From assembly GCF_032191835.1 (NCBI RefSeq), contig NC_083227.1, forward strand, positions 24,180,001-24,244,000: DNA of 64,000 bases. Direction: 5' to 3'. Of the stretch, positions 3,541 through 60,341 are shown piece after piece. Numbering within the stretch: the stretch's first letter is position 1; the number at the start of each line of letters is the position of its first letter. A model generated the notes under the pieces. The model saw nothing but the letters and a program-made list of their open reading frames with translations, was not told the DNA's origin and searched no databases. The DNA is from Heteronotia binoei (Eukaryota). The position numbers and the translations under genes are program-made.

Positions 3541-3902
3541 TTCTGACTCTGAACAATCACTCAGAGTTGGTGCTGCATGACTGAAAACTTTAGAATCTGT
3601 TCTCGTCTTCCACACTGAGCTTCTCCCTGGAGAAAAGGAAAATATGAGAAAGAGAGAGAATACCAGCAACTGCGTTAAACAGCACTTGTACAATACTCTA
3701 TACTCTATTTTTTTATACAATATGTCTGTTTGTTTTAGGGGTAACCAAACTGGCTTGGGAGCCACATGTGGCTCTTTCACACATATTATGTAGCTCTTAA
3801 AGCCCCCACTGCCCATCAACCAGCATGGAGAAGGCATTTGTCTCTTTAAATCACTTCTCCAAGCCAAACCAGCCAGCAGCTTAGAGAATGCATTTAAAGT
3901 TA

Positions 3903-4045
3903 NNNNNNNNNNNNNNNNNNNNNNNNNNNNNNNNNNNNNNNNNNNNNNNNNNNNNNNNNNNNNNNNNNNNNNNNNNNNNNNNNNNNNNNNNNNNNNNNNN
4001 NNNNNNNNNNNNNNNNNNNNNNNNNNNNNNNNNNNNNNNNNNNNN
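3903..4045. other. Assembly gap (run of N)
   Basis: About 143 N inside a hAT-type MITE in intron 1 of gene A. Confidence 0.95.
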
Positions 4046-5001
4046 CTGGCTCTCAAACATCTGACATTTATTCTATGTGGCTCTTATGTTAAACAAGTTT
4101 GGCCACCTCTGGTTTATACCACCTTACAGACTTATATAATTCTGTAAAAATTAACAGTACTCTTCCAGACCAACAATAAAAATTACAGGACGTCACAAGA
4201 GACTTCCCTGTGGTATTTCACTGGTACATAAAAATCCAAAAGTATAGTCCAAAGTAGTTCAAGATGAAGGTTCTGGATTTTTCAACTCTTCATTTCGGAT
4301 ATTCTTCCTCAAGTAAGGGCTGTTAATGATGGTTATACAAAATCAATTATTATTTTTTATTTATTTTATTTACTTTTTTATTTAATTATCTGTTGCTGAT
4401 GTTTGTTCCTTTACTCTGCCTTAAAAACACTCCTCCGTAGTGTCACAACCAGCTGGAGATCAGTTGTAAAAGCAGGAGATCTCCAGGCCCCACCTGGAGG
4501 CTGGCAACCCTAGGCGCCGCAGTTCAGTGGCAGAGCCTATCCTTTGCACAGAGGAGATCCTTGGGTCTGTCCTTGGCACCTGTTCCCAAACCTACCGAAA
4601 CAACATAGCTGGGAGAGACTCCCGAGAGGCATCTCAGACCGGGGCCGGGGAGGTCTCCATGCTAGGCCCATCTCCCCCCCCCCCTCCCTTCTTCAGCCAT
4701 TCCAGATTCTGCACTGATACCCACACGCATTTCCGCTGGAGCTGTCAACTAGTCCAGCCTGCCCCGCTCCTGTGCTTTTAAAAAGGGGTTGGATCTGCAG
4801 GGATCCGCGGGGGAATCCTGCGTCGGACCAGAGGGAAACTCGATCCCCCCTTGCTTCTTGCTGCAGCTCCATCCTCAGCTCCAGGGGGCGGGTCCAGAAC
4901 TTGCAGCCCACCCTGGGAGCAGAGAAGGGCGCCACCTGGACTTCCTCCTTCCTGGCCTGCCCAACCCGGGGGCGTGTTTCCCCACTTCCCGCCCCACACA
5001 C

Positions 5002-13102: not shown

Positions 13103-13855
13103 TCATGTGTGAAATACAAGAGAAGATCTTGTCCCAGGCTGAGTAGATGTATGGTCTCTTCTCATGTGGATTCTCTGATGCTGGTGAAGGTATGCCTTCT
13201 GGCCAAATCTCTTTCCACACTCTGAGCACTGAAATGGTTTCTCCCCTGTGTGGCTTCTCTGATGATGTTCAAGCTGGGATCTCTTAAGGAAGCTCTTTCC
13301 ACACTCCATGCATTTATATTGTTTTTCTCGTGAATGAACTGTTTCATGGCTTTTAAGGTTTGAGAGAAAACAGAACCCCTTGCCACACTCTGAACATTTA
13401 TGTGGTTTCCCCCCTGAGTGCATACTTTGATGGATAACAAGGTTACCCCTTTGGCGGAAGCACTTTCCACACTCGGAACAATCATACAGCTTCTCCCCTG
13501 TGTGGATTCTTTGGTGTTTTAAGAACTCTGCTCTGCGAAGAAAGCTCCTTCCACACTCTGAGCACTCATGCGGCATTTTCCCACTGTGCGTTCCCATATG
13601 TATATTATACTGAGTTTGGTTTAATAACTTCTTTTCACATATGGAGCATTTATACGGTTCCATCTCCACATGAATCATATCACAGACATCCCCATCTTGG
13701 AAAGGAATAGAATCATTCACCTTCTCCAACATGGCTTCCCTTCTGTGTTTTGAGTCCCCCTCGATTCTTGAAGTTTCCTTTAAACTCTTCATTCTTGACT
13801 TTATCTGGTGACAGCTGACGCAGTTCCTCGTCTTCCTCATTCTCTTGATCATCCC
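13103..13855 (-). pseudogene. Orphan C2H2 zinc-finger last exon, 6 fingers, with a frameshift in the spacer
   Basis: Six CxxC...HxxxH fingers with TGEKP-like linkers. The spacer GDDQENEEDEEL matches the last exon of gene D but shifts frame near 13730. The upstream intron is replaced by a MITE. Confidence 0.8.
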
Positions 13856-13860
13856 CTGCA

Positions 13861-14092
13861 CCAAATTTTCAGTATAGCATCCAGTGCCTCTCCCCAAAAT
13901 ACTCCCCAAGTTGCAAAAATATCAGACCAGGGGGTCCAATTCTATGGAAGGAAGGCATTTAAAAAGGTGTGCAGTCCCTTTAAATATGATGGCCAGAACT
14001 CCCTTTTGAGTTAAATTATGCTTATCACACTCTTGCTCCTGGCTCCACCCCAAAGTCTTCAGGTATTTCTTGAACTGGACTTGGTAACCCTA
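13861..14092. mobile_element. Truncated AGGGTTGCC-type MITE abutting the orphan ZF acceptor
   Basis: Matches the internal sequence of the 5256-5780 element; ends GGACTTGGTAACCCTA. Confidence 0.75.
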
Positions 14093-18627: not shown

Positions 18628-19568
18628 CTAAGAGTTCTCCCCTGTGTGGACTGTTTGATGCTTCTGCAGTTGTGCTGTCCGAGTAAACTTCAGTCCGCAT
18701 TGTGAGCATTTGTAAGGCCTCTCCCCTGTGTGCACTCTTTGATGCACAGTGAAGCTAATGCGGTGACGGAAGGCCTTCCCACACGCTGAGCACTCGTAAG
18801 GCTTCTCTCCCGTGTGGATTGTTTGATGCTGCCGCAGGGTTGACACCCGAGTAAACTTCTTCCCACACTCTGAGCACTGATATGGTTTCTCCCCGGTGTG
18901 GATTGTCCGATGCTGCTGAAGGTGTGCCAGCCGCCTGAACCTCCTTCCACACTCTGAACATTTATAAGGCCTCTCCGCTGCATGTGGTGTTTGTTGCATG
19001 GGAAGACTTACACAGTCACTGATGCTCTTTTCACTTTCTGCGCCCAGAGATGGTTTCTCTCCTGTGGGAATCATCTGATGCTCTTTGGAGCCTGGCTGCC
19101 CACTGTAGCTGTTTTCATACTCTGGAATTTTTTGAGGTTCTTCCCCATTGTGAATTCTTTGATGCCACGTAAGACTTGTCCTCCAACTGAAGCTTTCTCC
19201 ACACTCCGAGCAATGATATGGTTTCTCTGGTGAAGAAACCTGTTGGTGTGAAATAAGAGAGGTGCTCTGTCCGAAGCTCTGTCCAAACTCCGCACATGCA
19301 TTTTGTTTTTTCTTGACATGGAGTCTTCCATAAGCACTGTGGCCTCCATTCTTCCTCTTTTGGGTTGCCTTTCCCTCTCGGACAAGGATTTCCTGGAATC
19401 CCCCAGCTTGGCAAGGAATGGGATTATCCCTGCCCTCCACTGTGTGGCTTCCCTCCAGCCGCTTTTGTCCCTCTTGATTCCCAAAGGTTCCTTTCCAGTC
19501 CCCATTCTTGACTTTGTCCAGTGTGAATGCCCGGAGTCCCCCATCCTTTTCACTCTCCTGCACTTCAC
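18628..19568 (-). CDS. SCAN-ZF gene B, last exon: spacer + 5 intact C2H2 fingers
   Basis: TTCAAACAG acceptor (19569-19570), phase 1. Exons 720+121+938 nt give 593 codons, then TAG at 18628-18630. Confidence 0.88.
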
Positions 19569-20884
19569 CTGTTTGAAGAAAGGCAGAGCAACCCAGTTAC
19601 CACCGTGAAAAGAAGTCAAGTCTCAAATCATTCCCTCCATAGCTGATCTGTGCGCATTTTGTATCTTTTGCCAGAACTTTCTCCTGCTTCAGTCGTGCAG
19701 TTGGTCATACCTCTTGCCTAGCCAGGCCCACCCAAGGAGCAAGTTCTATTTGTTTCCTTCCTCTCCTCAAATGGGGACCACATACAGGGCTCTTTTTTTG
19801 GTTAAAACAATTTTATTTGGTAACATATGGTAACAGATTATATTTCTTGCATCATTAATAACTTCTTTTATCTATCCCATATACAGGGCTCTTTTTTGTA
19901 GCAGGAACTCCTTTGCATATTAGGCCACACACCCCTGATGTAGCCAACCCTTCAAGCAGGACTTTTTTTGAGCAGGAACGCACAGGAACGCAGTTCTGGC
20001 AGGCTTAAGAACATAAGAGAAGCCATGTTGGATCAGGCCAGTGGCCCATCCAGTCCAACACTCTGTGTCACACAGTGGCCAAAAAAACCCCAAGTGCCAT
20101 CAGGAAGTCCACCAGTGGGGCCAAGACACTAGAAGCCCTCCTACTGTGCCCCCCCACCCAAGCACCAAGAATACAGAGCATCACTGCCCCAGGTTTGGTG
20201 TCAGGGTGTGTGACCTAATGTGCAAATGAGTTCCTGCTGGGGTTTTTTCTGCAAAAAAAGCCCTGTGTGATGTCAGGAGGTGTGGCCTAATATGCAGACG
20301 AGTTCCTACAAAAAAAGCCCTGCCTCCACGAGCTTACAGGACTCTCAGTACAGGGCCTACTGCATGCTCCAGGAGGATTATTTGCAAAGGTGTTCCTGCT
20401 ACAAAAAGGCCCTGCTCCTATTTATTTGAAAGAGGTGGGGAGGAGGGATTCAGACACTTCCCCTCCACACCTGGGATGCCACACATGGTTTCGTTCTTTG
20501 ATATTCATGATTCAACATGAAGCATTATTGTAAATTGCAGACCCATCAAAGCCTGCTGTTACACATAAAACTGCAGCAAATTTTGGACCCAAATCAAGCA
20601 TTCTTTTGCTTTCAATTAACAAGTGTGGAAGGAGTTCAGTTCCTCTGAATGTCGGGGTTCCCCTCAGTCACCATGGCTAGTGGCCAGTGATATCCATGGA
20701 GGATAAGTCTGTCTAATCCCTCCTTAAAGCTGTTTATTCCTGTGGCCATCGCTACATCCCCTGGCAGCAAATGCCACATTTTAATCACTCTCTGTGTAAA
20801 GTAGTAGTTTCTTAAACTGGCTCTTAAATGCTATTCATATCAAATGTTATTCATATCAAATGTTATTAATATCAGGCCCAATGC

Positions 20885-21155
20885 CAGTTTGGTGTAGTGG
20901 TTAAGTGTGCGGACTCGTATCTGGGAGAACCGGGTTTGATTCCCCACTCCTCCACTTGCACCTGCTAGCATGGCCTTGGGTCAGCCATAGCTCTGGCAGA
21001 GGTTGTCCTTGAAAGGGCAGCTGCTGTGAGAGTCCTCTCAGCCCCACCCACCTCACAGGGTGTCTGTTGTGGGGGAGGAAGGTAAAGGAGATTGTGAGCC
21101 GCTCTGAGACTCTTCGGAGTGGAGGGCAGGATATAAATCCAATATCATCATTCCC
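20885..21155 (+). mobile_element. tRNA-derived SINE (Squam3-like)
   Basis: Near-identical to 12270-12530. Confidence 0.8.
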
Positions 21156-22349
21156 ATAGAATGTTCTCCAACATTCCAACTTCAACAGAGAATGCTCAGG
21201 CTCAAGCTTCATTATGGGAGCTCAGGAACAACTTGTAAAATGGGCTGCCTCCCACCAACATTTTTTTATTTTACCACAATCCCAGCCAAAAAATGAGTCA
21301 TGAAATAATAGTTACTACATTAGTATAACCTCATAGATTTCTTTTTAAGTTCTAATGCACCAGCTGCCATTTTTATCAACAGACCATTTCCTTTAAGAGC
21401 TTTGTTCTCTTCTGGCCCTTTCGATTGCAAAATTAATAATGGATTCCACAAAGAGCTAGTGTGGGGTAGTGAATGAGGATGCCAGACTAAAATCTTGGAG
21501 ATCCAGGTTTGAATCCCACTTCACTACGGAAAGCTTGTTTACAAGTTCATTTCTGGCCAAACTTTTAAGGTACTGGTTTTGATTATGAGTTGGGCCTTTT
21601 CTGTGGTAGCCTCAAAGTAATGGAATGAGCAGAGCTGAAAAGTAAGTTTATATTACTCAGTTTTTCATTGTTGCTTTCCTGTAGTTTTGGGGGGGGGGGG
21701 TATTTTAAGCATTTATTAGTTTTATGGCGCTCAAGACAGCTTACAACTTAGATAAAATACAAAATACATTAAAAGCATAAAACCCAAAATTTAAAATCAC
21801 AGCTCAGGAATGTTATTAAACAAATGAGGTCATAAAAAAAAGTTTCCAACAGCCTCTCAAAGATCAAAAGTGAGGAGGCCAAACACATCTCCCTGGGGCA
21901 GTTGTTCCTTAATTGTGGGGCTTCCATTGTACCTCTCTCCAGCACCATTTCCCCCAGTCTGTTTCTTATCACAAGTTTTTCTCCACTCCCTCCACCCTGT
22001 TTTCTTCTCCCTCCCTGGCTTTTCTCTCCCCTCCCACCATTTTTTACACTCTCTATCCATTTGCACATGAGTTATTTGACTCGGGTTTGGTGCTGTCGGG
22101 AAGAAGGTTTTTCCCCTTACATCATGGTGGATCTGTGCTCCTCAGCTTTCCTCCAATCTGTCTCAAACCTGCTTTGCTAAAAAGATTTGGGAAGGAGCTA
22201 CAGCAAAGCCTGGATGGCTGCTGTGGGATAGAAATGTTCAGCTTTCCCACACAGCACCTGTCTCCTCCCTTCCCCCCCTCAACTTTTGTGTTTTTTAAAT
22301 GACATCAGAATATAAATCGAATAGGTTCTCTGAATTCCTAGCATTCGTT

Positions 22350-22833
22350 TGTCAGAACTCAAGAACTTCAAACGGATCCCATACTTAGTTACAAAGCTAG
22401 GATTTTATTGAGGAGAACTAGGTGCTGGAAAAGGCAAGATAACAGTAATGGCGAGAGCCAGCATCAGCTTGATTTTATACACGTAAAGCAAACATCTCAC
22501 AAAGCCACAATTCACATTGTAGGGCGCAGCTGTCTTCTCACCATCACTATCAGTAGAGAGGATGCCTCCCTACTCCGAAGGCCATGCTGTTCGGCTTCAA
22601 AGGGTCCCAGTGTGAGAATGTGCAGAGACAAGACATAATTCATTCTACAGCCCCAAATATTTTGGATACCAGTGGGGCAAGGTTAATTACTATTCAGGCA
22701 CTCTGGGTTAAGCAGAGGTTACAACATGGAGTCAGTTTGGTTCAGTAACAATACAGCTCCAAGCCACAATAAAACTACCATACAGCATTGGTCACATTAT
22801 AGAGGACCAGCAGCAAAGATACAAGTTCTGACA
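22350..22833 (-). repeat. 3' LTR
   Basis: 484 bp; no mismatch to 27934-28417 found by eye. Confidence 0.95.
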
Positions 22834-22850
22834 TACTGCCCCCCCTAAGC
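22834..22850 (-). promoter_or_regulatory. Polypurine tract (TTAGGGGGGGCAGTA)
   Basis: Purine run immediately before the 3' LTR on the sense strand. Confidence 0.85.
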
Positions 22851-25800
22851 GCCCCCTCCCGCGGGGCCGACCTTGGGCTTGTGCGGGTACAGTAGGTGAA
22901 ACTTTTTCAGCAGTTGCGGTGCCACTACATTCTGAGACTCGACCCACTCGTCACAGCTCGGGGGGAAGTGTTTCCACCTGATCAAATAATACAGTTTCCC
23001 CCGTTTGACTCTGGAGTCCAGGATCTCCTGGACTTCATGGTGACTCTGACCCCTCACTGTCGTCGGAGGGGGCGGTGGGGCCCTGGGATGGAAGGACGTA
23101 GCACCAGGGTCTTTCCGAAGCAAGCTGCAATGAAAAACAGGATGGATCTTACTTAGTGATTTGGGTAGTTCGAGTTCTACCGTTACTTTATTTATCACCC
23201 TTTTGATTTTGAAAGGTCCTAGGAACTTCAGTGCAAGTTTGCGGCAGGACTGGGGAAGGGGAAGGTTCTTTGTCGACAGGAAAACTGTATCCCCCACCTT
23301 CAGATCCCACTCCGGAGAGTGTTTTTTGTCAAACTGTTTTTTGTAGGCTTTTTTCGCTTCCTCCAGGTTTTCCTGAATTCCCTTCCAGCCTTCACGAAGT
23401 CCCTCCCACCATTGTTGGCATGATGTTGGCTGGGATGGGCTGGCTGGGAGGGCGAGCGTAGGGAACGGCTTGCCCTCGTAACCATTGATGATTTGAAAAG
23501 GGGAGGTTTTGGTTGAGCTATGGAGGCTATTGTTGTAGCCGTATTCTGCAAAAGGGAGGAGATCCACCCAGTTGGACTGTTGGAAATTAATGAAACAGCG
23601 GAGGTATTGTTCTAGAAGGCCATTAACCCTCTCCGTCTGTCCGTCCGACTGGGGGTGGTAGGCAGAACTCAGTCCTTGCTCAATGCCAGCTAGTTTGCAG
23701 AACTCCCGCCAGAAGTTGGCAACGAACTGCGTTCCGCGGTCACTAATGACCTTGTCTGGGAATGAGTGTAGGCGTACAATGTGAGTGAAAAAGAGCTGGG
23801 CAAGTTTTTTGGCTGTAGGTAACTGTTTGCAAGGAATGAAGTGAGCCTGCTTCGAAAAGGTGTCGACTACGACCAAGATGACTGTTTTGCCCTGTGAGGG
23901 CGGGAGCTCTACAATGAAGTCCATGGAGACTACCGACCAAGGTCGGGTGGCTGTAGGGAGGGGAACCAGGTGGCCCGGAGGTTTGCCCCCCCTTCGTTTT
24001 GCCATGAGGCAAGTGGGACATGAGAGTACAAATTCTGAAACATCTTTTTTCATTTTCGGCCACCAAAATTGGCGGGTGAGCAAGTTGAGTGTTTTGACAT
24101 AACCAAAGTGGCCGGCCAAGCGGCTTGAGTGGCAGCGTTCCAAAACCTCCTTCCTGAGGGGATCGGGCACATAGATTTTTTCGTTATGTAACCAGAGCCC
24201 GTTCTCGGCCTTGACCAAGTTGGGGGGGCGGTCAGTTTCTTGTTTGTACTCTGAGAGGAACCGAGAAAGTAACTCTAAGTCCGGTGGATTGGTCTGTTTA
24301 CCGGAGCGGGTGGTGACCCCCCCCGCGATGGCTGAGGGGGAAATTAGTGAGTCCACCACCTCCTCCCTGAGACTGTCGTGTTGGGGCAGGCGGGAAAGGG
24401 CGTCCGCTAAAAAGTTTTTTGAGCCCGGAATGTGTTTCAACACAAAATCAAACTTAGCAAAGAAGCCTGCCCACCGGATCTGTTTTGCAGTCATTTTGCG
24501 ACGCCCCGTGAGGGCTTCCAGGTTTTTGTGATCGGTCCAGATTTCGAAGGGGACTCTCGCTCCTTCAAGCCAGGAGCGCCAGGTTTTTAAGGCAAACATG
24601 ACTGCAAATGCCTCTTTGTCCCAGACCGACCAGTTTCTTTGTTCATTGGAAAATTTCCTGGAAATATAGGCACAGGGTCGGAGCACCCCATTTTCTCCCC
24701 TCTGCATTAATATGGCTCCTACAGCGGCGTCGGAGGCGTCGCATTGGACCACAAAGGGCTTAAGTTCGTCAGGATGAGCCAGCACGGGTTCGGAGGTGAA
24801 GAGGCGTTTTAGCTCAGTGAAAGCTTTTTGACAGTCAGGCGTCCACGTTAGGCGTGCGCCGGGTTTTTTAGCCTCGTCGCCCTTCCCTTTCGTTTTGAGG
24901 AGTTCTGTAAGAGGGAGCATGACCGTGGCGAACCCCTTTATGAAGTCGCGGTAAAAGTTAGCGAACCCGATAAAACTTTGTAACTGCTTGCGGGTTCGAG
25001 GGGGTTCCCAGTCTAACACCGCTTGGACCTTTGCGGGGTCCATGGACAATCCCTCCCCCGACACCCGGAAGCCCAAGTAATCCAGTTCGGTCTTGTGGAA
25101 TTCACATTTTGACAATTTGGCATACAGTTTGTGTTTACAAAGGGTGCTTAACACTTTTCTGACCAAAGGCACATGAGACTTTAGATCTTGTGAATAGATA
25201 ATGATGTCATCAAGGTACACCACCACCCCCTTGAACAGGAAGTCCCGCAGCACTTCATTAATAAAGTTCATAAAAACACCCGGGGCTCCCTGTAGCCCAA
25301 ACGGCATGACAAGGTACTCAAATTGTCCCAGTGGGGTGTTGAAGGCTGTCTTCCACTCGTCCCCCTCTTTGATGCGGACGCGGAAGTAAGCGTCTCGGAG
25401 GTCGAGTTTGGTAAATACTTTCCCCTTTGCTACGGTGTTTAATAAGTCCTTTATCAACGGGATCGGGTAGGCGTTGGACATGGAAATCCCGTTTATCGCA
25501 CGAAAATCTGTGCAAAGCCTAAGCGACCCGTCCTTCTTCTTTCGGAACAGGACAGGGGCGGCATGGGGAGCTGTGGCGGGTCGAATAAAGCCACGCTTTA
25601 GATTTTTGTCCAAAAACTTTCGGAGTTCAGCTTTCTCCGCCCAACCCATGGAGTACAGTTTCGCTTTGGGAAGCTGCTGCCCTGGGATTAGCTCAATGGC
25701 ACAGTCTGTAGGGCGGTGGGGCGGTAGCTCATCCGCTTCCTTCTCGCTAAATGCCAGCTTTAAGTCTCGGTACTCCTTGGGGATGGAGGCGACTTCCTCG

Positions 25801-26306
25801 AGTGTGAGGCACGCCCGCATGTTTTGGGGGGGAGCGTGCGGCCCCCACTCGGGGCGCCAGTGGTGATGCTCGCACCTCCAATCCGGGAACCGGACGAGCT
25901 GTTCCTCCCACCTTATGTCGGGTTGGTGGCGGGCGAGCCAAGCTGAGCCTACTACCACGTCGAAAGAGCAGGAGGGGGCGATTACGAAAGTCTCAATTCC
26001 CCAATGCTCCTCAGTCCCTACCGGGACCGCCTGAGTTTCTAAAGTACATGGTTCCCCTCTCATGGGCCCCCCGTCCATTTGCTGGAACTGCATCGGTTGC
26101 GGCAGGGGCGAAGTGGCTAATCCCAGCGCCTCAACTAGGCGGGGGGTGATCAAGTCCCTGTTACACCCTGAGTCGATTAGCGCTCGGGCGTGCATGAATC
26201 TCTTAAGGTTCGGGTTAAGGAGGGTGACGGCCATAAAAAGTAAACCCCCAGTTGCTCTCACCGTGAGGAGTGCCGGCTGTTGTTGGACCTGCTTTGCGGC
26301 ACCCAT
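22845..26306 (-). CDS. pol: Pol polyprotein: protease, RT, RNase H, integrase, chromodomain (reached by -1 frameshift)
   Basis: LIDSG protease; MPFGL and YLDD RT; CDAS/TDH/ADALSR RNase H; H-H-C-C, MDFI/SDRG/GQTE integrase; GPF motif; EVQEILDSR...YLIRWKHF...EW chromodomain. 1153 codons open. Confidence 0.95.
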   Translation of the reverse strand: MGAAKQVQQQPALLTVRATGGLLFMAVTLLNPNLKRFMHARALIDSGCNRDLITPRLVEALGLATSPLPQPMQFQQMDGGPMRGEPCTLETQAVPVGTEEHWGIETFVIAPSCSFDVVVGSAWLARHQPDIRWEEQLVRFPDWRCEHHHWRPEWGPHAPPQNMRACLTLEEVASIPKEYRDLKLAFSEKEADELPPHRPTDCAIELIPGQQLPKAKLYSMGWAEKAELRKFLDKNLKRGFIRPATAPHAAPVLFRKKKDGSLRLCTDFRAINGISMSNAYPIPLIKDLLNTVAKGKVFTKLDLRDAYFRVRIKEGDEWKTAFNTPLGQFEYLVMPFGLQGAPGVFMNFINEVLRDFLFKGVVVYLDDIIIYSQDLKSHVPLVRKVLSTLCKHKLYAKLSKCEFHKTELDYLGFRVSGEGLSMDPAKVQAVLDWEPPRTRKQLQSFIGFANFYRDFIKGFATVMLPLTELLKTKGKGDEAKKPGARLTWTPDCQKAFTELKRLFTSEPVLAHPDELKPFVVQCDASDAAVGAILMQRGENGVLRPCAYISRKFSNEQRNWSVWDKEAFAVMFALKTWRSWLEGARVPFEIWTDHKNLEALTGRRKMTAKQIRWAGFFAKFDFVLKHIPGSKNFLADALSRLPQHDSLREEVVDSLISPSAIAGGVTTRSGKQTNPPDLELLSRFLSEYKQETDRPPNLVKAENGLWLHNEKIYVPDPLRKEVLERCHSSRLAGHFGYVKTLNLLTRQFWWPKMKKDVSEFVLSCPTCLMAKRRGGKPPGHLVPLPTATRPWSVVSMDFIVELPPSQGKTVILVVVDTFSKQAHFIPCKQLPTAKKLAQLFFTHIVRLHSFPDKVISDRGTQFVANFWREFCKLAGIEQGLSSAYHPQSDGQTERVNGLLEQYLRCFINFQQSNWVDLLPFAEYGYNNSLHSSTKTSPFQIINGYEGKPFPTLALPASPSQPTSCQQWWEGLREGWKGIQENLEEAKKAYKKQFDKKHSPEWDLKVGDTVFLSTKNLPLPQSCRKLALKFLGPFKIKRVINKVTVELELPKSLSKIHPVFHCSLLRKDPGATSFHPRAPPPPPTTVRGQSHHEVQEILDSRVKRGKLYYLIRWKHFPPSCDEWVESQNVVAPQLLKKFHLLYPHKPKVGPAGGGA

Positions 26307-26330
26307 TAAAGCAGGTCGCTGTCGTTTCCC
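26268..26330 (-). promoter_or_regulatory. -1 ribosomal frameshift signal: G GGA AAC slippery site + H-type pseudoknot
   Basis: Slippery heptamer 26330-26324, 6 nt spacer, stem 1 GACCTGCTTT/AAAGCAGGTC, stem 2 GGGTGCCG/CGGCACTC. Confidence 0.88.
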
Positions 26331-27880
26331 GCCGACTCGGTATCGTCCGACTCCTCGGTCGATTCTTCGACTGCCGCCAGGCTGGTGGTAAAATCCTCGT
26401 CAGTCGCCAAGGAAGTGGCGACGGAGCCCCGACTGGGCTCCTTCGATCGGCTGCTCTTCTTCTTCTTCGGGCCCGGGGTGGTTGGCCGCGCCGTGGGTGG
26501 TGTGGATCCCGCTTTCCCAGGGCAGTTAGCAGCAAGATGATTTGGGTCCCCGCATTGGAAGCACTTGCGGGCGGGAGACGGGGTGGAGGTCGTCGGAGCC
26601 TTCTTCCCTTCGGATTTAGTTGGGGTGTGTTTGGCTCCCTTCCTCGCTAGTTGCTGTCTCCTCATCCCCACGTGTTGGAGGTTGGTCTCCACTTCCCCGG
26701 CCAGTTGGATCCAGCCGACCAGCGTGTCGGGCCTTCCCTGACTGTAACAGCGGTCGAGGATGCTCGGATTCAACCCGTTGATGAACGCGGTGTATTTCAT
26801 GACCTCGTTCCATCCCCTCGCTGCCGCACAGTACCCCAGGAATTCGGTGGCGTACTCGCGGGTGGAGCGGTTGCCCTGTTCGATGCGTTGGAGGGCAGCG
26901 ACCGCCTTCTCCTCCCGCAAGGGATCTCCATACTGGCGGAGCATCGCGTGCAGGAACCCTGCCACGGTAGCTAATTCGGGCTTTCTTCCCATGAAAAGCC
27001 CCACATACCATTTGCGGGCCGCCCCTCTCAGTCGAGACGCGATGTGGTACACTCGGCTGGCCTCGGTAGGGTAGTCGGCGCCCCAGTGGGTGAAAAACGT
27101 GTCGCACTGAATAGTAAAGTATTCCACGTCCTCCGGATTCCCATCGAACGTAATCTTCAGCTCTCTTCCCCGTCCCTCGGCCCCTCCTGGCGCTCGCGGC
27201 GCCCCAGGCGGCGGTGCTGGGCCCGGTAGGGCCGGCGGGATCGGACCGGGTAGTGCAGGCGGCGCCGGGGCGGCCGGGGCCCCTGGTGCGGGCGGCGCCG
27301 GCGGTGCCGGGGCGGCCGGAGCCGGCGGAGCCGGAGGTGCCGGGGCCGCTGGGGCCGCTGGGGCCGGCGGCGCCGGGGCAGCTGGAGCCTGCGGGGCGGG
27401 GGCCGGCGGGGCGACAGGCGGTTGCCCCAGTGGCAACACTCCATACGGTATCCCCAGGACCGCGGTTTGCAAAGTGCGGAGCTGGTCGTGGATAGCGCCC
27501 AGGTTCTGCTGCATCTCCTCGGCCATCGTCACGCGGGAACGGTGCACATCGCCGTGGATTTCCCGCACCCAATCGAATAGTTCGTTGCGGAGGGTCCGGA
27601 TCGGGTCTTCCCCCCCTCGGGGCTCCGTGCCCTCCGCCTGGCCCTCGTCGTCGTCTCCTGCCCCTCCTTCGCCCAACATGCTTCGATACCGCTGCTCCGC
27701 GGCGTCGATTGCTGCCGTGGACTTCCGCGGGCTCCAGGTTCGCGGGGCCGGGAAGGCGGCGTCGACCGAGAAGGGCGCTGGAACCTTAATTTTGCGTCGG
27801 ACCCCCGTCACGTTTGGGTCGAGCGGCGGGTCCTCCGATGGGGTGGTGGGCTCTCCGTCGTCTGGTACTTTTGCCGCCAT
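26306..27880 (-). CDS. gag: Gag: Pro/Ala hinge, capsid domain, CCHC zinc knuckle
   Basis: Likely ATG at 27880 (MAAKVPDD). FDGNPE...LRGAARKWY...QGNRSTREYATEF capsid motifs; CFQCGDPNHLAANC knuckle; TAA at 26306-26308. Confidence 0.93.
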   Translation of the reverse strand: MAAKVPDDGEPTTPSEDPPLDPNVTGVRRKIKVPAPFSVDAAFPAPRTWSPRKSTAAIDAAEQRYRSMLGEGGAGDDDEGQAEGTEPRGGEDPIRTLRNELFDWVREIHGDVHRSRVTMAEEMQQNLGAIHDQLRTLQTAVLGIPYGVLPLGQPPVAPPAPAPQAPAAPAPPAPAAPAAPAPPAPPAPAAPAPPAPPAPGAPAAPAPPALPGPIPPALPGPAPPPGAPRAPGGAEGRGRELKITFDGNPEDVEYFTIQCDTFFTHWGADYPTEASRVYHIASRLRGAARKWYVGLFMGRKPELATVAGFLHAMLRQYGDPLREEKAVAALQRIEQGNRSTREYATEFLGYCAAARGWNEVMKYTAFINGLNPSILDRCYSQGRPDTLVGWIQLAGEVETNLQHVGMRRQQLARKGAKHTPTKSEGKKAPTTSTPSPARKCFQCGDPNHLAANCPGKAGSTPPTARPTTPGPKKKKSSRSKEPSRGSVATSLATDEDFTTSLAAVEESTEESDDTESAGNDSDLL

Positions 27881-27920
27881 CGAGCCAAGCCTCCAGTACA
27901 GATAAGCCACGAACAATGGG

Positions 27921-27931
27921 ATTACTGTTAT
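27921..27931 (-). promoter_or_regulatory. Self-priming primer binding site (ATAACAGTAAT)
   Basis: 2 nt downstream of the 5' LTR; no TGG start; perfectly complementary to 11 nt at 28033-28023 in the LTR. Confidence 0.8.
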
Positions 27932-27933
27932 AA

Positions 27934-28417
27934 TGTCAGAACTCAAGAACTTCAAACGGATCCCATACTTAGTTACAAAGCTAGGATTTTATTGAGGAGA
28001 ACTAGGTGCTGGAAAAGGCAAGATAACAGTAATGGCGAGAGCCAGCATCAGCTTGATTTTATACACGTAAAGCAAACATCTCACAAAGCCACAATTCACA
28101 TTGTAGGGCGCAGCTGTCTTCTCACCATCACTATCAGTAGAGAGGATGCCTCCCTACTCCGAAGGCCATGCTGTTCGGCTTCAAAGGGTCCCAGTGTGAG
28201 AATGTGCAGAGACAAGACATAATTCATTCTACAGCCCCAAATATTTTGGATACCAGTGGGGCAAGGTTAATTACTATTCAGGCACTCTGGGTTAAGCAGA
28301 GGTTACAACATGGAGTCAGTTTGGTTCAGTAACAATACAGCTCCAAGCCACAATAAAACTACCATACAGCATTGGTCACATTATAGAGGACCAGCAGCAA
28401 AGATACAAGTTCTGACA
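27934..28417 (-). repeat. 5' LTR with TATA box (28063-28057), predicted TSS 28033 and AATAAA (27993-27988)
   Basis: TATAAAA lies 30 nt upstream of a CA+1 initiator-like site; poly(A) hexamer 40 nt downstream of it. Confidence 0.93.
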
Positions 28418-29531
28418 TCGTTTTTGTTTGTTTTTTAAAGAAAATCTCTAGCAACTTTTGTTGTGGAGATATAAGAGGCGAAAGCACATCTCCACAAACA
28501 AAAGGGGCTGGAGACTTACCTAAAAAAAAAAGCTGGGAATTCAGAGAACCTGTTAATTGTCTGAATGTTACAGCAATGTAACCAATATTCTGTGTTTACC
28601 TGGAGAAAATGGCCATTTTGGAAGGTGGACTCTATGGCATTGATGTCCCGTCCCGTCCCATCCCTCCCCTCCCCAAACCCCACCCTCCACAGACTTCACC
28701 CCCAAAATCTTGAGGTATCTGCCAGCCTGGAGAAGGCAAAGAAGAATAGGAAAGAAAAGAAAAAGAGGAGGAGGAGAGATCTGCACATGTTAATGATGTG
28801 GGAACCTGTCATGTGGAAGCCCCATCGCTCTAGCCCTGGATTGGCAGCCACAGGACCAAGAGGGCAACTAGAGATGCCATGTGGAAAACTCTGTCTCCCT
28901 CACCTTTTATCTACTTTGCCCTGTCCATCAATTTGGGTTCCAGACACCACTGCCAGGACTCCCTAGGCTGAGTAAGGAGTGCCTTGGTTGCAGTGCTGGA
29001 TTAAACCCTGTGGAGGCCCCTAGGCAGTTGAAATCTTGGGGGGCCCCCCTCACAAATTATCTGAGTCGGAGCGCCCTCCCCACCGTCCACAGCCCCTGCT
29101 GCAGCCTGCGGGCACCTTCTCAAAAGCCCCTTTGACAAAGGTGTGGGGGAGAGGCGGAGAGAGGCAAACTTGGCGACAACACCACCAGCAGCCGCACCAA
29201 ACAAGTTGGGCAAAGAGCAGCTCAGTTGCTGCCTGCATGTGCAGGCTGGGAGGGCTGCAAGCAGGGGGAAAACTAGGGCGGGGAAGCTGGTCCAGGGCTC
29301 CTAAAGGTATGCGGCCCATAGACCAGAGCCTACTTGGCCTAATTGTTAATCCGGCTCCGTTTGGTTGCTAGGCAACCTCCCTGTAATCTGGTGAGATTTT
29401 GCAAGATCTCAGTTTGCATTGTCTAATTAAGGGAAATTTCACCCCAAACCATCTTTTAAAAAGTTTTTGTAATTGTCTTCAGACCTGCCTCAAGCCCCAG
29501 AAGGAGCTGCCAGGCCTCCCTCCTTCCTTAC

Positions 29532-29652
29532 CCAACAAGCTGGCCTCTCCGTCCTCCACTTCCTTGATCTCTATCCAAGGATGCCTCTGCTCACTCTCAG
29601 ATGGAGCTTGGCCTGCCTCGGAGATATTCCCAGCCGCTGCTTCCAAGAACAC
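29532..29652 (-). CDS. SCAN-ZF gene B, linker exon (VFLEAAAGNISEAGQAPSE...), 121 nt
   Basis: TGTTGTAG acceptor, G|GTAAGG donor, phase 0 to 1. Confidence 0.85.
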
Positions 29653-30209
29653 CTACAACAGCACAGAGGGAACCTTTCAGGGCAGACACACAGAGTGAAA
29701 TATTCGGTCGCCCACCCCGAGCTGAATAGCTCCGTTGCTGCATAACAGAGAGAAATTCAAGATGGGGTTTCCATAATTAATGGAACTTACCAAGAACACC
29801 ACTTGGGACAAGAACTGTAAAACAAAATGAAGGATAAGAAACAAAATGAAAGATAAGAGGGGACTGGATGAACATATGGAGCAGAGGTCCATCAGTGGCT
29901 TATTAGCCACAGCTTATCGTTGGAGCTCTCTGTCTGGGGTAAGTGATGCTCTGTATTCTTGGTGCTTGGGTGGGGCAACAGTGGGAGGGCTTCTAGTGTC
30001 CTGGCCCCACTGATGGACCTCCTGATGGCACCTGGAGTTTTTTTTGCCACTGTGTGACACAGAGTGTTGGACTGGATGGGCCATGGGCCTGATCCAACAT
30101 GGCTTCTCTTATGTTCTTATAAGAACCCACTGAGATGGAGAGAGGTCTCAGCCCCTGTTCTATCCCAGACCCTCCTGCACTGAGGGCCCACAGAACAAAA
30201 AGGCCTCAC

Positions 30210-30929
30210 CTGCTTCTCCTGCCTCAAGAGGAACTCCTCGGCCAGGGCCACTGCCTGAGAACAGCTCTCGGGGCCGCTTTCCCTCACACAGCTCTGGATC
30301 TCCGAGGGCAGGATGCTCAGCAGTTGCTCCAGGATCAAGAGCTCCAGGATCTGCTCCTTGTTGTGATTCTCCACTCTCAGCCAACTGTGGCAGATTTCCC
30401 GGAGTTGGGTGTAAGCCCCCCGGGGCCCCTCAGCCTCCTTGTAGCTGAAACACCGGAACTGCTGGCGCTGCTTCTCTCGGTTCAGGGCATCCCTTCTCAA
30501 GATGGCTGCCTTCACCTTCCCATAATCCTGTTTGTCTTTGGCATCAAGACTCTTAAAGGCTTTTGCAGCTTCTCCACTGAGGGCTGGCAGGAGTCGGATC
30601 GCCCACTCGTCTCTGGGCCACCAACAGGCTTCGGCCACTTGCTCAAAGGAGGCCAGGAAGGCCTTGGCATCCTCCCAGGGGGAAGGCTTCTTTGGCAAGA
30701 GGGGGATTCCCCATCTAGAGTGTGGTGACTCCAGTGTCTTTAGGAATTCCTGCCACTGGGCTTCCCACTGTATGAGGGAAAGGGATCCCTCCCCAGCTCG
30801 CTGATCCATCAGATCTCCCGGTGTCTTTTGTAGTAATTCCCTAATACTCCCAGCCTGGAGGACGTGAGGGGATTTTCCTGTTCCCTCGGATACTTCCCCT
30901 ATTGTGGTACCTTGCCCCTCCATTTTCAT
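30210..30929 (-). CDS. SCAN-ZF gene B, extended SCAN exon, 240 codons
   Basis: MKMEGQ...[31 protein letters not shown]...[18 protein letters not shown]; CAG|GTGAGG donor. Confidence 0.9.
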
Positions 30930-31639
30930 ATCAGGTGCTCACTGAGGTGTTCATATAGAAAACTATCAAAACAAATTACAGTATTGTTGACTGGGCTTCT
31001 CCCTAGAGAAAAAAAGACAGAAACAGAAAAGAGAGAGAATGGATAAAAGTGGTATCGTACCCTCTATTTTGGATTTTACTGGTCATACAAAGAAAATTAC
31101 AACTAAAGCTATGTCAGTAAAGGACTATAATTTTTTTAAAAATAAAATATATTATTTATATTTAAAAGTTTAGGGTTTGTTTTATGGGTTGGAATCAGAC
31201 CGTTCCACCCAGTCTGTCCTGTCAAATGATGTTATTTGGGTTGGCTGCGGACAGAGGTGCCTGGGATCGAACCTGCTGCATGCAAGGCATGTTCTTAACC
31301 ACTATAACTATGGCACGGCTTCACTTCCACCCCACTGACCTGAGAGCAGAAGTTCTCTTACAAAAAAATTTCAAAGGGAGATTAGAGAGACTGCTGAATT
31401 GCAACTGATCATGAAGCTCAAGACAATGCATCCTCCAGGACTGAACTGAGATCCAGGTTTCCTATCTCATTACCAATGGTGATTTCTCCACATGAACTAC
31501 CCCTCTGCATATCACACCTAATCCAATCACACTTGCTACTGTCATTCACCTGTCATTTGGCATCTGAAATCACTCTGCTGTCCAATTATAAGGATAGAGT
31601 CACATTCTAGATGTATCTGAAGAAATGACTAGTGACTCA

Positions 31640-39788: not shown

Positions 39789-41065
39789 TCACTCAGGAGA
39801 TTTCTCCTCCATGTGGATTCTTTGATGCTTCCTCAGGGATGATATCCAATTAAACTTCTTTCCACATTCAGAGCATTGGAACAGTTTCTCCCCAGTGTGG
39901 GTCATCTGATGTACCGTGAGGCTAATGCAGTGGCTGAAGCTCCTTTCGCACTCTGAACATTTATACGGTTTCTCCCCTGTGTGGATCCTCTCGTGCTGCT
40001 GAAGGTGGAATGGGGAAATGAATCTCTTTCCACACTCTGAGCACTCATAGGGCTTCTCCCCCGTATGGATGATTTGATGCTGTTGCAGGTGTGATGTGCG
40101 ACTAAAACTACTTTCACACTCAGAGCATTTGTAAGGTTTCTCCCCTGTGTGCGCTCTTTCATGCACCTTGCGGCTTAAGCGGTGACGGAAGGCCTTCCCA
40201 CATTCTGAGCATTTATATGGTTTCTCTCCAGTGTGGATCCTTTCATGGCGTTGAAGGAGGGAACTGAAACTGAATTTCTGCCCACACTCTGAGCATTCAT
40301 AAGGCTTCTCACCAGTGTGGATTCTCTGATGCTGCCGCAGGGTTGACACCCGAGTAAACTTCTTCCCACACTCTGAGCACTGATACGGTTTCTCCCCTGT
40401 GTGGAGTGTCTGATGCTGCTGCAGATGTGATGCCCACCGAAATGTCTTTCCACACTCCAAGCATTTATAAGGTCTCTCTGCTGTGTGTGTTCTTTGTTGC
40501 TCAGTCAGGCTTATGTGGTCACTGACACTCTTCTCAACCTCTGAGCACTGAGACTGTTTCTCTCCTGTTGGGATCACCTGATACTCTTCGTGGTGTGGTT
40601 GCCCACTGTGGCAGTTTTCACTCTCTGGAATTTGGGAGAGATCTTCCCCCTTGTGAATTCTTTCATGCCAAGTAAGAGCTGTCCTCCAACTGAAACTCTC
40701 TCCGCACACTGAGCAATTGTATGGTTTATCTACTGAGTGAATTTCTTGATGTGAAATAAGATTCAAGTTCTGACTTTTCCCAAGCACCACAGTTTCATTT
40801 TTATTTTCCGCTATGTAGATTCTCAGGTGAGTTGTGAGACCTTTATTCCTTCTATTTTGAGTTGCCTTTTCTTCTTGGATTGGAATTTTCTGGAATCCCC
40901 CACCTTGGCAAGGAATGGTTTTATCATTTCTCTCAACATTACCATTTCCATCTTGCCTCTCTAGTCCACCATGATTCCCAAAGTTTCCTTCCAAATCTTC
41001 ATTGTGGACCTTGTCCAATGATAACACCTGGAGTCCTCCATCATTTTCATTCTCCTGTACATCAC
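39789..41065 (-). CDS. SCAN-ZF gene C, last exon: spacer + 9 intact C2H2 fingers
   Basis: TTTCAAGCAG acceptor (41066-41067), phase 1. Exons 711+121+1274 nt give 702 codons; TGEKPY linkers. Confidence 0.9.
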
Positions 41066-41633
41066 CTGCTTGAAACAAAGGCAGAGAGATCTAGTTACCA
41101 CCCTGGCAAGAAGCCAAGTCTCAAAGCTGGCTGTACATTTTATTCCTTTGGGTGGACTTTAAAGAACTTTAAAAGGCCTTCCCTCTTGCCTAGACGCAAG
41201 GAATTCTGGGACTTGTAGTTCTTGAGAACTTGTCACTTCTCCTGGTGCTATATTTTTAGTCTGTCAACATTTTTAAAAAATTTATTAGATTTTTAGTCGC
41301 TTCTCACCCAAAGGGTCTCATGGCAACTAAAAATCCAATAAATAAAAAAATGAAATGATGACAGACTGAAAATGTAGCAAACCAAAGGGCCTCACTGATC
41401 AGAATGTTGTGCGTTCTGATCTCACCCTGCTTCTTACTGGCACTTGCAAATCTCACAAGATTGGACACCCCCTTCTAAGATACCTATCTCTCCATCCCCA
41501 ATGGTAAAGGGGTTGCAACTTGGGCCAACCAGTCCTCCTGGATGCTTGGGCTCCATAGTAAAGTTTACCCACACACAAAGCTATGCTATACTGAATCAGA
41601 CCCTTGATCCATCAAGGTCAGAACTGTCTATCC

Positions 41634-42133: not shown

Positions 42134-42676
42134 GTCTATTCAGGTTGGCAGCCCCTCTCCAAGGTCTCAGGCAGAGGTCTTTCACATCAACTACTGCCCA
42201 GTCCTTTTAATTGGACATGCCAGGGATTGAACCTGGAATATTCTGCAAGCAAAGCAGAGGGTCTTCCCCTGAGCCACAGCCCCTTCCTTCTTAGGGCCTG
42301 AGTTTTTCAAACCAGGAAGTCACTAAGAAAAAGGCACATCTGGCAGGAAGAGGAATTTACAGAACTTCTGTTCTTGGCTATTGACCTTCATGTCTTCATG
42401 GAACCTCCACGTTCAGGGACAGAATGACAAACAAATGCCAGACAGAGTGGGCTACAGTTGCCAATCCCCAGGTGGGGGCATGAGATCCCCCGGTTTGGAG
42501 GCCCTCCCCCCGCTTCAGAATCATCAGAAAGTGGGGGAGTGGGGAGGGAAATGTCTGCTGGGCACACCATTATTCCCTATGGAGACTGATTCCCATAGAG
42601 TATAATGGAGGATTGATCTGTGGATAACTGGGGCTCCTGGAGGGGCTGTGTTTTGAGGTAGAAGCACAACACGTCC

Positions 42677-42890
42677 CTGGGGAGGGACGGTGGCTCAGTG
42701 GTAGAGCATCTGCTTGGGAAGCAGAAGGTCCCAGGTTCAATCCCTGGCATCTCCAAAAAAGGGTCCAGGCAAATAGGTGTTAAAAACCTCAGCTTGAGAC
42801 CCTGGAGAGCCGCTGCCAGTCTGAGAAGACAATACTGACTTTGATGGACCAAAGGTCTGATTCAGTATAAGGCAGCTTCATATGTTCAAC
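42677..42890 (+). mobile_element. tRNA-derived SINE (Squam2-like)
   Basis: GTGGCTCAGTGGTAGAGC A box, GGTTCAATCCC B box, non-tRNA body ending ATATGTTCA; copies at 38850-39035 and 58395-58600. Confidence 0.75.
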
Positions 42891-44217: not shown

Positions 44218-45477
44218 CTGCAACAGAAGAGAGGGACCCTTTCAGGATAGAGTGACGGATCTGGGAAGGCGGGTACAGGCTGAAGGATTCTATTCCCTGC
44301 CCCAAGTGTAGCAGGGAAGAAGACCATAGATTTATACCCCACCCTTCTCCCTGAATCAAAGTCCCAGAATGCCTTACATCTCCATTACCTCCCCCCCCCA
44401 CAACAGATACCCTGTGAGGTAGGTGGGCCTGAGAGAGCTCTCCCAGAAGCTCTCCTTTCAAGGACAACTCTTGCAAGAGTTATGGCTGACCCAAGGCCAT
44501 TCCAGCAGCTGCAAGTGGAAGAGTAGGGAATCAAATTCGGTTCTCCCAGATAAGAGCCTGCAAACTTAACTATTACATCAAACTGGGTCTCTCAGAACGG
44601 AGCTTCTTAAATAAATACAGGCATCTTTTGTGGCCTGAATTATAACACAACCAGACTGGTGCAAAAGCAGGTGACCCACATAGAGGAGCGATTTGGCAGA
44701 CAAATAGCCACAGGTTGCCAGTCCCAAATTGGGAGATTACAGAAGATTTGGAGTTGGAACCTGAGGAGGGCAGGGTGAGGGGAAAGGAAGGGCCTCAGCA
44801 GGACCTCCAGTGCTGTCATATTCTCCGGGGGAACTGATCTCCAGTCTGGAGAGGAGTTGTAATTCGGGGAGATCTCCAGGTCCCACTTAGAGGTTGGCAA
44901 CACAAAAACCAGTCATAGATGCTGTGATGATCTAATTGCCAGTTTAGTTAATTGAGATCCATTTTTCCAGACCTCCTGCTAACTCTAAATGTAAATCCAA
45001 CACAAAAATGGATTTTTGAGGATGTGCTCTTTCAGGAAGTGGTGGGGGACCCCATCCACACATCCCTAAACCAAGGGATAAAAGTTGCCAAGTCCTTCCG
45101 CTGGGAATTTCACGCTGAAGATGCTCTAGGACTCATGATAAAACTCTATGGTACCAAAGAGTTTTTACCATGAGTCCCAGAGCATCCCTGGCATGACATC
45201 CCAGGCACGATAACATCACTTCCAGGTAACATCATCGCATTGGGGCTCTTCGGGGGCGGGAGGCCCTCCAGACCCGGGGAATCCCCCACCCCTGGTGGGA
45301 GCTTGGCAGTCCTATGAGAGATAGTGGTCCCAACCCAAACATTCAATATTATCCGAGTTGAATAATGGAGCCAACTGATTAGACAATCATCCCAAAGTGT
45401 TCCCCTTTGACGTTCTCAGGCCCAGCTGCACTCCAGGCCCTCTCGCACTCAAGGCCCACACAGCAGAAGGACCTCAC

Positions 45478-46188
45478 CTGCTTCTTCTGCCTTAAGAGGA
45501 ACTCCTCGGCCAGGGCCACTGCTTGGGAGCAGTTCTCAGGGCCACTCTCCCTCACCCGGCTCTGAATCTCTGAGGGCAGGACGTTCAGCAATTGCTCCAG
45601 GACCAAGAGCTCCAGAATCTGCTCCTTGCTGTGTTTCTCCACTCTCAGCCACCCACGGCACATTTCCCACAGTTGGCTGTAAGCCCCTCGTGGCCCCTCA
45701 GCCTCCTGGTAGCAGAAATGACGGAACTCTTCACGCTGCTTCTCCCGGTTCAGGGCTTCCTCTCTCAAGATGGCTGTCTTCACCTTCCCATAATCCTCTC
45801 TGTCTTTGACATCCAGAATGTTGAAGGCCTTCTCTGCTTCTCCACTGAAGGCTGGCAGGAGTCGGGTCACCCACTCTTCCTTGGGCCAGCAGCAGGCTTC
45901 AGCCACTTGCTCAAAGGAGGCCAGAAAGGCCTTGGCATCCTTCCAGGGTGAAGGTTTCTTTGGCCACAGTGGAATTGTCCAGTGTGGCTGAGGGGACTCT
46001 ACTGTCCTGAGGAACTGCTGCCACTGGGTTTCCCATTGCTGCAATAAACTCTCACTAGGTTCCTCTTTAATTACTCCTGGCCTCCTTTGGAGGAATTCTC
46101 TGATACTCCCAGCCTGGAGTACATGGGGGTTTTTTGCTATCCCCTCTTGCATCTCCCCTATCGTGGTGTCTTGACCCTCCATCTTCAT
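45478..46188 (-). CDS. SCAN-ZF gene C, extended SCAN exon, 237 codons
   Basis: MKMEGQ...[31 protein letters not shown]...[18 protein letters not shown]; CAG|GTGAGG donor. Confidence 0.9.
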
Positions 46189-46454
46189 ATTGGGTGATTG
46201 CTCAGTGATATTTTTCCTATAGAAAACCATGGGAATAAATTACAACTTTCTTGACTAGACCTCTCCCTGGAAGAAAGAAGACAGAAGTAGAAAGAGATTA
46301 AAAAGGATAACTGGTTTTGAGTCCTCTATTTTTCGTATGTAATGGTCATAGTATATTAATTACAGATTTTTCTATATAGGCAACAGAGCTGCACTGTATT
46401 AAATGATTCACAACATTACATGGATAATTATTATGACTGTGGTATAACTTGCTA

Positions 46455-60160: not shown

Positions 60161-60341
60161 GAAATCATCAGTGTGCAAAGCAAGCCTCTCTGATGCAGCA
60201 GGATTTTCAATTGTCCATTTTCGGTACACTTCAAAGTGCAGCAAAAAGAAACTCTAGAAATGTTACAAATGTGAATAGATATTCAAGCGCAGATCAGACC
60301 TCCTTGTGTGGGAGCTAATAGGATCTTTGTCTTTATTCCAG

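Follow-up and report, generated by a model that had tools for sequence, protein, structure and literature searches.

A structurally intact and probably young Ty3/gypsy chromovirus in a predicted zinc-finger gene intron of Heteronotia binoei

Introduction

Does the genome of a living lizard still hold an intact chromovirus, that is, a long terminal repeat (LTR) retrotransposon whose integrase ends in a chromodomain? And if it does, how well might such an element stand in for the ancestors of PEG10, a gene that therian mammals domesticated from gag and protease? These questions are raised by an element at positions 22350-28417 of a stretch of 64,000 nucleotides from Heteronotia binoei (contig NC_083227.1, positions 24,180,001 to 24,244,000). 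This whole stretch is called the window here; it is a cluster of genes that encode SCAN and C2H2 zinc-finger domains.

An original prediction had described a young, intact chromovirus of the Tf1/sushi type at this place, and had proposed it as a living model for the lineage that gave rise to the PEG10 and RTL genes. The first half of this proposal is borne out. We hold with high confidence that the copy is a Ty3/gypsy chromovirus, structurally intact and with LTRs that are identical; that it likely belongs to the Tf1/sushi group; that it likely entered its site no more than a few million years (Myr) ago; and that this site lies in what is predicted to be an intron of a SCAN-zinc-finger gene. 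The second half fares less well. The element reads as a cousin of PEG10 that carries the same recoding signal, and it is not, by sequence, the nearest proxy for PEG10.

Even a cousin has its uses, of course. To our knowledge, mammals have lost active Metaviridae. Because of this, intact copies in reptiles offer the nearest living view of the elements from which PEG10 and the RTL genes came. The copy described here gives exact coordinates at which self-priming and a PEG10-type frameshift might be tested in an element from an amniote.

An intact element with identical ends

The element lies on the minus strand, and its principal parts are these:

22350-28417, minus strand: chromovirus element, with LTRs, target-site duplication (TSD), gag and pol frames
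22345-22349: left copy of the TSD, 5 bp, identical to 28418-28422
28418-28422: right copy of the TSD, 5 bp, identical to 22345-22349
22350-22833, minus strand: 3' LTR, 484 bp, with TG...CA ends and a 10-bp terminal inverted repeat; 0 mismatches against the 5' LTR
22409-22404, minus strand: AATAAA of the 3' LTR
27934-28417, minus strand: 5' LTR, 484 bp; 0 mismatches against the 3' LTR
27993-27988, minus strand: AATAAA of the 5' LTR
22836-22846, minus strand: core of the polypurine tract (PPT), G-rich, 2 nt from the 3' LTR, overlapping the pol stop codon
26306-27880, minus strand: gag, 524 amino acids (ATG at 27880, stop at 26306), with an N-terminal region, a Pro/Ala-rich repeat, a capsid and one CCHC knuckle
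22845-26324, minus strand: pol past the predicted frameshift, from its open reading frame (ORF) and Pfam matches; in the -1 frame relative to gag, and open from 26399

The two LTRs, both ending in the 10-bp inverted repeat, agree at 484 of 484 positions, and the TSD that flanks them is perfect over 5 bp without extending to a sixth. The Pfam matches in Gag are a capsid and a zinc knuckle; those in Pol are a protease, reverse transcriptase (RT), RNase H, integrase, SH3 and chromodomain. All 14 of the catalytic and zinc-binding residues that were checked are present. Among proteins of solved structure, the best relative of Pol is the Gag-Pol of Ty3 (E 2.7e-128, covering residues 230-1130). There is no env, nor is there room for one, because just 11 nt separate the end of pol from the 3' LTR. 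LTRs of the TG...CA type, a TSD, a gag, the order protease-RT-RNase H-integrase (PR-RT-RH-IN) and the absence of env are together the features of a Ty3/gypsy element (Metaviridae).

Thus, the LTRs that the original prediction had called identical by eye remain so on exact comparison, and the same can be said of its perfect 5-bp duplication and its open gag and pol frames with their catalytic motifs. It had also listed an intact PPT, primer binding site (PBS) and frameshift signal. All three were found, but the PBS is of the self-priming type, not of the tRNA type.

Within gag, a degenerate, GC-rich tandem array at 27258-27412 encodes a long Pro/Ala tract N-terminal to the capsid; CpG is undepleted there.

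Relatives in other genomes and in RNA

Relatives of Pol were taken from the best 120 of 2099 matches. Among these, the closest are squamate elements (from Crotalus, Anolis and unnamed sources), with identities of 50-57%; fish, amphibian and fungal relatives stand at 41-47%, and no full-length Pol exceeds 57%. A tree was built from the RT-RH-IN region of 117 rows, 6 matches having been dropped for short cover, with fish, amphibian, fungal and squamate relatives all represented. Here, a 13-row clade (support 1.0), with named members from Anolis and Crotalus, has the element as its first branch.

The window holds no further copies of the element beyond its two LTRs. Two RNA runs of one study, examined as contigs (with shares of 0.08 and 0.06), do contain relatives along the full length of the element, the longest pieces being 85-88% identical. 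With the host exon nearly unchanged in the same runs, these relatives show a family that is old and multi-copy; it has long been resident in its host, and many of its copies are older than the one described here. At a likeness of 94%, the pieces listed are short (~40-110 nt; 51 and 76 records in the two runs), and the flank beside the 3' LTR (21784-22295) is uncovered in both runs, as are parts of the LTR. Cover that is missing in this way permits no inference as to polymorphism or the absence of a young subfamily.

The closest pieces of Gag, 82-90% identical, are fragments within gene models of Heteronotia binoei. Four such models (P0121, P0122, P0123 and P0168) splice pieces of the element family into unrelated host genes, and are likely annotation artefacts of intronic copies. 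The family may be one without an existing name.

Priming from the element's own transcript

How might the element prime its reverse transcription? Self-priming is a common feature of Tf1/sushi elements, with a layout described for Tf1 (10.1101/2022.12.06.519325, PMC4600332, PMC6317226). Three features of the element bear on this question:

27921-27931, minus strand: PBS, 11 nt, 2 nt past the 5' LTR, with its complement inside the element's own LTR and without a TGG start
28023-28033, minus strand: predicted self-primer, being the predicted first 11 nt of the transcript; a perfect complement of the PBS that starts 30 nt past the TATA box
28058-28063, minus strand: TATA box in U3, the sole TATA[AT]A match in the LTR

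The PBS and the LTR are complementary at 11 of 11 nt, a match that was equalled in 29 of 20000 shuffled LTRs. The Tf1/sushi group displays a PBS that can pair with the 5' end of the element itself, and such a PBS is found here, with a start site that is predicted. When leaders of six lengths were folded, the pairs of the duplex between PBS and primer had probabilities of 0.62-1.0 in four of them, and of 0.54-0.87 at 180 nt. In related copies from one of the RNA runs (X2), primer position 3 (22447) is variant in each of the three contigs that cover it. One X2 contig has the matching change at PBS position 9, which is the pairing partner of primer position 3.

A PBS of the tRNA type was considered as well. 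It is ruled out by the absent TGG and the perfect partner in the LTR, in a comparison that included no set of tRNAs. A scan against Rfam returned one chance match (E 0.38).

The element likely primes its own reverse transcription as yeast Tf1 does. RNA polymerase II would start 30 nt past the TATA box, at 28033. The first 11 nt of the transcript would then fold back on the PBS, and the RNase H of the element would cleave the transcript to give the primer for the minus strand, as shown for Tf1. Plus-strand synthesis would proceed from the PPT, and the integrase would insert the cDNA via a 5-bp staggered cut.

The gag-pol junction

The pol frame lies at -1 relative to gag, and two features at the junction suggest how ribosomes might pass from one to the other:

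26324-26330, minus strand: slippery heptamer G GGA AAC, 18 nt ahead of the end of gag and in its frame
26268-26317, minus strand: predicted H-type pseudoknot, from a stem search, starting 6 nt past the slippery site

In the pseudoknot, a first stem of 10 bp (26317-26308 with 26295-26286) is crossed by a second of 8 bp (26304-26297 with 26275-26268). Only two of 980 sampled 63-nt segments from the interior of the element show this two-stem pattern, one at the slippery site and one in a GC-rich part of gag. G_GGA_AAC ranks among the most shift-prone heptamers (PMC5009743), and PEG10 has the same GGGAAAC, together with an H-type pseudoknot (PMC13622457). A minority of ribosomes, stalled by the pseudoknot, would shift by -1 at GGGAAAC to make Gag-Pol.

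A -1 frameshift at this junction is the rule for Tf1/sushi elements outside the fission yeasts (10.1101/2022.12.06.519325), and the frames, the heptamer and the crossing stems conform to that rule, the shift itself being predicted. Because -1 frameshifting is so general among these elements, it is no mark of special kinship with PEG10.

The chromodomain

Chromoviruses carry a chromodomain at the C-terminus of their integrase, and this element has one:

22896-23036, minus strand: chromodomain, matching Pfam Chromo (E 2.5e-9) beyond its curated cut-off; it aligns to CBX5/HP1

The three positions of the aromatic cage are occupied by His, Trp and Phe, the codon for the first-position His being at 23037-23039. 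Since three aromatic cage residues define a type I chromodomain (PMC6317226), this domain, with its His, is not of type I. Five homologues that cover the first cage column have His there as well, and the His codon sits inside a 62-nt X2 piece that shows zero differences. Because of that piece, the His is apparently a trait of the family.

The chromodomain may steer integration to chromatin; that it does so by reading methyl-lysine is doubtful, because the first cage position is His. Mammalian clusters of KRAB zinc-finger protein (KRAB-ZFP) genes carry H3K9me3 and HP1 (PMC4592553). The idea that the chromodomain targeted the zinc-finger cluster was set aside, since one insertion, with a cage that is incomplete, is too little to carry it.

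The host gene

The placement inside a zinc-finger gene that had been proposed for the element is supported by the prediction of three exons of a SCAN-zinc-finger gene:

30210-30929, minus strand: predicted SCAN exon of the host gene, 720 nt coding, GT donor, phase 0; Pfam SCAN E 1.4e-35
29532-29652, minus strand: predicted host exon 2, 121 nt, phase 0 to 1, AG/GT boundaries; 74-76% conserved in two paralogues in the window
18628-19568, minus strand: predicted host C2H2 zinc-finger exon, 941 nt up to the stop, with 5 canonical fingers (Pfam)

Their phases fit, and joined together they give a frame of 593 amino acids without an internal stop. The element lies between the 121-nt exon and the zinc-finger exon, and therefore in predicted intron 2, on the strand of its host. 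One RNA contig matches the zinc-finger exon as far as 19569 and continues with 147 other letters; leaving the genome at this point is as expected of splicing at the predicted acceptor. The host exon is nearly unchanged in the two RNA runs (0 of 332, 11 of 570, 0 of 248 and 3 of 468 positions differ). No KRAB exon was found, none of the 38 flanking ORFs of at least 35 amino acids matching KRAB at E 0.01, and comparison of the host gene with its paralogues gave no further conserved exon.

With the insertion, intron 2 grows from 3890 to 9963 bp and gains three AATAAA signals. A copy on the same strand with such signals may lead to some host transcripts being polyadenylated early. Should the copy be polymorphic, a same-strand insertion that brings polyadenylation signals could be a small natural mutation of its host gene.

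The surroundings of the host gene deserve mention in their own right. Tandem SCAN-zinc-finger paralogues, 74-82% identical, occupy 2779-4083, 30117-30938 and 45379-46239; 13103-13921, 18628-19596 and 39789-41090 (minus strand). They share the small middle exon, and the gene that was examined has no match to KRAB. High-copy short interspersed repeats lie in the host gene at 19880-21151 and 29855-30119; among them is an inverted pair, 92% identical, that brackets the element (20006-20192 and 29934-30119).

Age, competence and what weighs against them

An absence of differences between two LTRs of 484 bp bounds their divergence at <0.31% per lineage (95%). This becomes an age bound of 0.6-5.2 Myr for rates of 5 to 0.6 x 10^-9 substitutions per site per year, rates that are our assumption. 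An independent bound on divergence, 0.6-1.7% depending on the indel rate that is assumed, comes from frames that stay open over 5034 coding bases. The observed/expected ratio for CpG is 1.0 in gag and 0.72 in pol, with 0.26 in the LTR and 0.20-0.24 in the flanks. The original prediction had called the element very recent. Its youth is supported, but the bound on that youth reaches no further than these figures.

Several observations weigh against the view that a young, self-priming Tf1/sushi element sits intact in an intron. The RT-RH-IN tree includes neither a named Tf1/sushi reference element nor a plant outgroup. For a leader of 154 nt, the pair probabilities of the priming duplex fall to 0.42-0.67; the minimum-energy fold of this leader is without the duplex (its centroid fold has it), and the leader as a whole is no more stable than its shuffles (z 0.15). 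The two flanking duplexes of the Tf1 "pretzel" are not evident in one constrained fold. The compensatory change is a single pair, whose halves come from different contigs. The transcription start, the frameshift and the cDNA are predicted from the sequence. Splicing across the element rests on the prediction of exons, the RNA contig bearing on the acceptor and not on exon 2. Last, of 226 columns in which the homologues are at least 90% conserved, Pol deviates at 14. The 113 well-covered homologues have a median of 4 such deviations, and 12 rows of the squamate clade have 6-15. Because of these deviations, the competence of the element is not assured.

The copy may also be read in another way: it was inserted up to a few Myr ago, it is now fixed, and it is effectively dead or silenced, being immobile or without a working partner family. 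We regard this as quite possible, if short of probable. Zero LTR differences are compatible with the whole span of 0.6-5.2 Myr over the assumed rates, the count of deviating Pol columns is at the upper end for the clade, and the longest pieces of the element in the two RNA runs come from the 85-88% relatives and not from the copy in the window. Conversely, neither a stop nor a frameshift interrupts the 5034 coding bases, and the 14 checked residues and all of the cis signals are kept. Further, some of the deviations are traits of the family, the chromodomain His in the zero-difference X2 piece being an example.

Might the identity of the LTRs and the cleanness of the frames be partly a product of assembly, with reads from several similar copies collapsed between true flanks? 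The window contains a single gap of 143 Ns, at 3903-4045 beside a SCAN exon, which means that the assembly is scaffolded, and the family does have many related copies. Against a collapse stand the perfect TSD, the clean junctions and the lack of any gap within the element or close to it. For a collapse, moreover, several near-identical young copies would themselves be needed. We therefore consider it unlikely.

Domesticated genes lose their LTRs and integrase. The copy has identical LTRs, a TSD, an intact integrase and high CpG, all of which indicate youth. It is thus scarcely conceivable that it is a domesticated or host-maintained gag-pol gene kept by selection, even with both of its frames intact within an expressed gene cluster. 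A young transposable element remains the preferred reading.

Distance from PEG10

A profile-free search with the capsid gave 150 proteins, including named marsupial PEG10 and an unnamed PEG10-like protein, and this search supplied the PEG10 rows. A word-index search made with the profile of Gags gave 9 proteins, all of squamates, with no PEG10 among them. The capsid set held 152 rows after removal of five redundant PEG10s and of rows with <85% capsid cover. Against six PEG10 rows, the capsid of the element is 29% identical, which places it 115th of 146. Identity with PEG10 rises to 47% in Gags of Podarcis and Varanus and to 54% in one unnamed Gag, the mean for fish being 33%. In a capsid tree made by IQ-TREE from a 44-row subset (158 columns), the 19-row clade of the element is parted from every row near PEG10 by a branch with 100/100 support. 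A path of 3.76 changes per site leads from wombat PEG10 to the element, which places it 39th of 43. The capsid is, by identity and by path, not among the nearest relatives of PEG10, as that of a sister would be.

Those who look for a living proxy may still ask whether the element belongs to the lineage that gave PEG10. A 2024 study of the anole, with 310 metaviral capsid ORFs, named Gypsy-15_Ano as the PEG10 proxy, an element reported to have no frameshift (PMC11011659). By keeping its frameshift, with the same heptamer and the same type of pseudoknot as PEG10, the element in the window might be the better proxy. Two further results lean this way. A profile of 38 related Gags finds the PEG10 capsid as its best match of solved structure (E 4.9e-25), and holding the 19-row clade beside PEG10 costs just 0.20 log-likelihood units, so that the approximately unbiased (AU) test does not reject it (p 0.50).

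The profile, for its part, contained Gags that are nearer to PEG10, and the Gag of the element alone matches the PEG10 capsid at E 0.7. The sister position escapes rejection because 158 columns cannot place a long branch. The frameshift, as noted above, is general in Tf1/sushi elements other than those of yeasts. With the identities, path and 100/100 branch all pointing elsewhere, we judge it improbable that the element lies in the PEG10 lineage and is the better proxy. The claim that it is a living model for the ancestor of PEG10 and RTL genes is weakened: it shares the frameshift signal, but its capsid stands low in likeness to PEG10, and other squamate elements come much closer. The comparison bears on PEG10, no RTL1 sequence having been recognized among the matches.

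Seven Gags (P0220, P0194, P0152, P0254 from Varanus komodoensis, P0207 from Podarcis muralis, P0200 and P0236) are 41-54% identical to the PEG10 capsid. As a set, they group with PEG10 at 0.96 in a fast tree, a grouping that a more careful tree leaves unresolved. By sequence, they are better candidates than the element in the window for a living proxy of PEG10.

A bolder picture can be drawn from all of the above. Here, a self-priming chromovirus would still be mobile and would be segregating among living lizards of a population. It would have, in full, the PEG10-type frameshift signal that is absent from the published proxy; its clade would be a fast-evolving sister of PEG10; and its chromodomain, with a His in the cage, would land it in zinc-finger clusters marked by H3K9me3. 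We consider this picture, taken whole, very unlikely. Were it true, self-priming, gag-pol recoding and chromatin targeting could all be observed in an amniote.

Other features of the window

A frame of 920 amino acids at 60275-63037 (plus strand) encodes C2H2 zinc fingers and a long region like a hAT transposase (Dimer_Tnp_hAT E 0.034). It is accompanied by a SCAN exon at 53594-54364 (plus strand), and the two may form a fusion gene of SCAN, zinc fingers and transposase. ARAGORN calls three tRNAs (42212-42283, 42683-42755 and 58536-58605), possibly the heads of tRNA-derived short interspersed elements (SINEs). A frame of 174 amino acids at 59328-59852 (plus strand) has no Pfam match; presumably it is akin to the end of the reverse transcriptase of a long interspersed element (LINE).

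Comparison with known systems

Ty3 of Saccharomyces provides the best match to Pol in the PDB. Ty3 is primed by a tRNA, shifts by +1, and is not known to have a canonical chromodomain.

The Tf1/sushi group, which includes Tf1 and Tj1 of the fission yeasts and sushi-ichi of fugu, offers a closer comparison. With it, the element shares the PR-RT-RH-IN order, the C-terminal chromodomain, a Gag with a CCHC knuckle, a PBS complementary to the LTR, a predicted -1 frameshift between gag and pol, and an AATAAA close to the LTR's 3' end. Of the LTR motifs given for Sushi (PMC3601003), TGTYANR fits the start of the element's LTR, and the 3' end fits at 6 of 7 letters. Among the differences from the group, the flanking "pretzel" duplexes are not evident in the constrained fold of the element, and the first position of its chromodomain cage is His. 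Activity has been demonstrated for Tf1 and Tj1; the element is known from its sequence.

In the open-licence literature, which leaves aside most subscription journals, nothing was found on the family of this element, nor any direct demonstration of mobility for an amniote chromovirus. Full-length Metaviridae, chromoviruses among them, are known from the tuatara, squamates, turtles and crocodiles (PMC3670739), and most element families of the anole appear to have been recently active (PMC5381603). The element is one more chromovirus in a setting where full-length reptile chromoviruses have already been published. With other squamate chromoviruses (annotated in the genomes of Anolis, Crotalus, Podarcis and geckos; gene models P0003-P0011 and P0121-P0126) it forms one clade, both in Pol (1.0) and in the capsid (100/100). 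Several Gags of this clade end with Gly-Asn or Glu-Asn 4-6 residues ahead of the stop, which fits a shared frameshift site.

PEG10, last, resembles the element at the junction. Both have GGGAAAC followed by an H-type pseudoknot, a capsid, one CCHC knuckle and a protease past the -1 shift, and in both Gag ends in Gly-Asn a few residues ahead of its stop. Unlike the element, PEG10 is without LTRs, RT, integrase and chromodomain.

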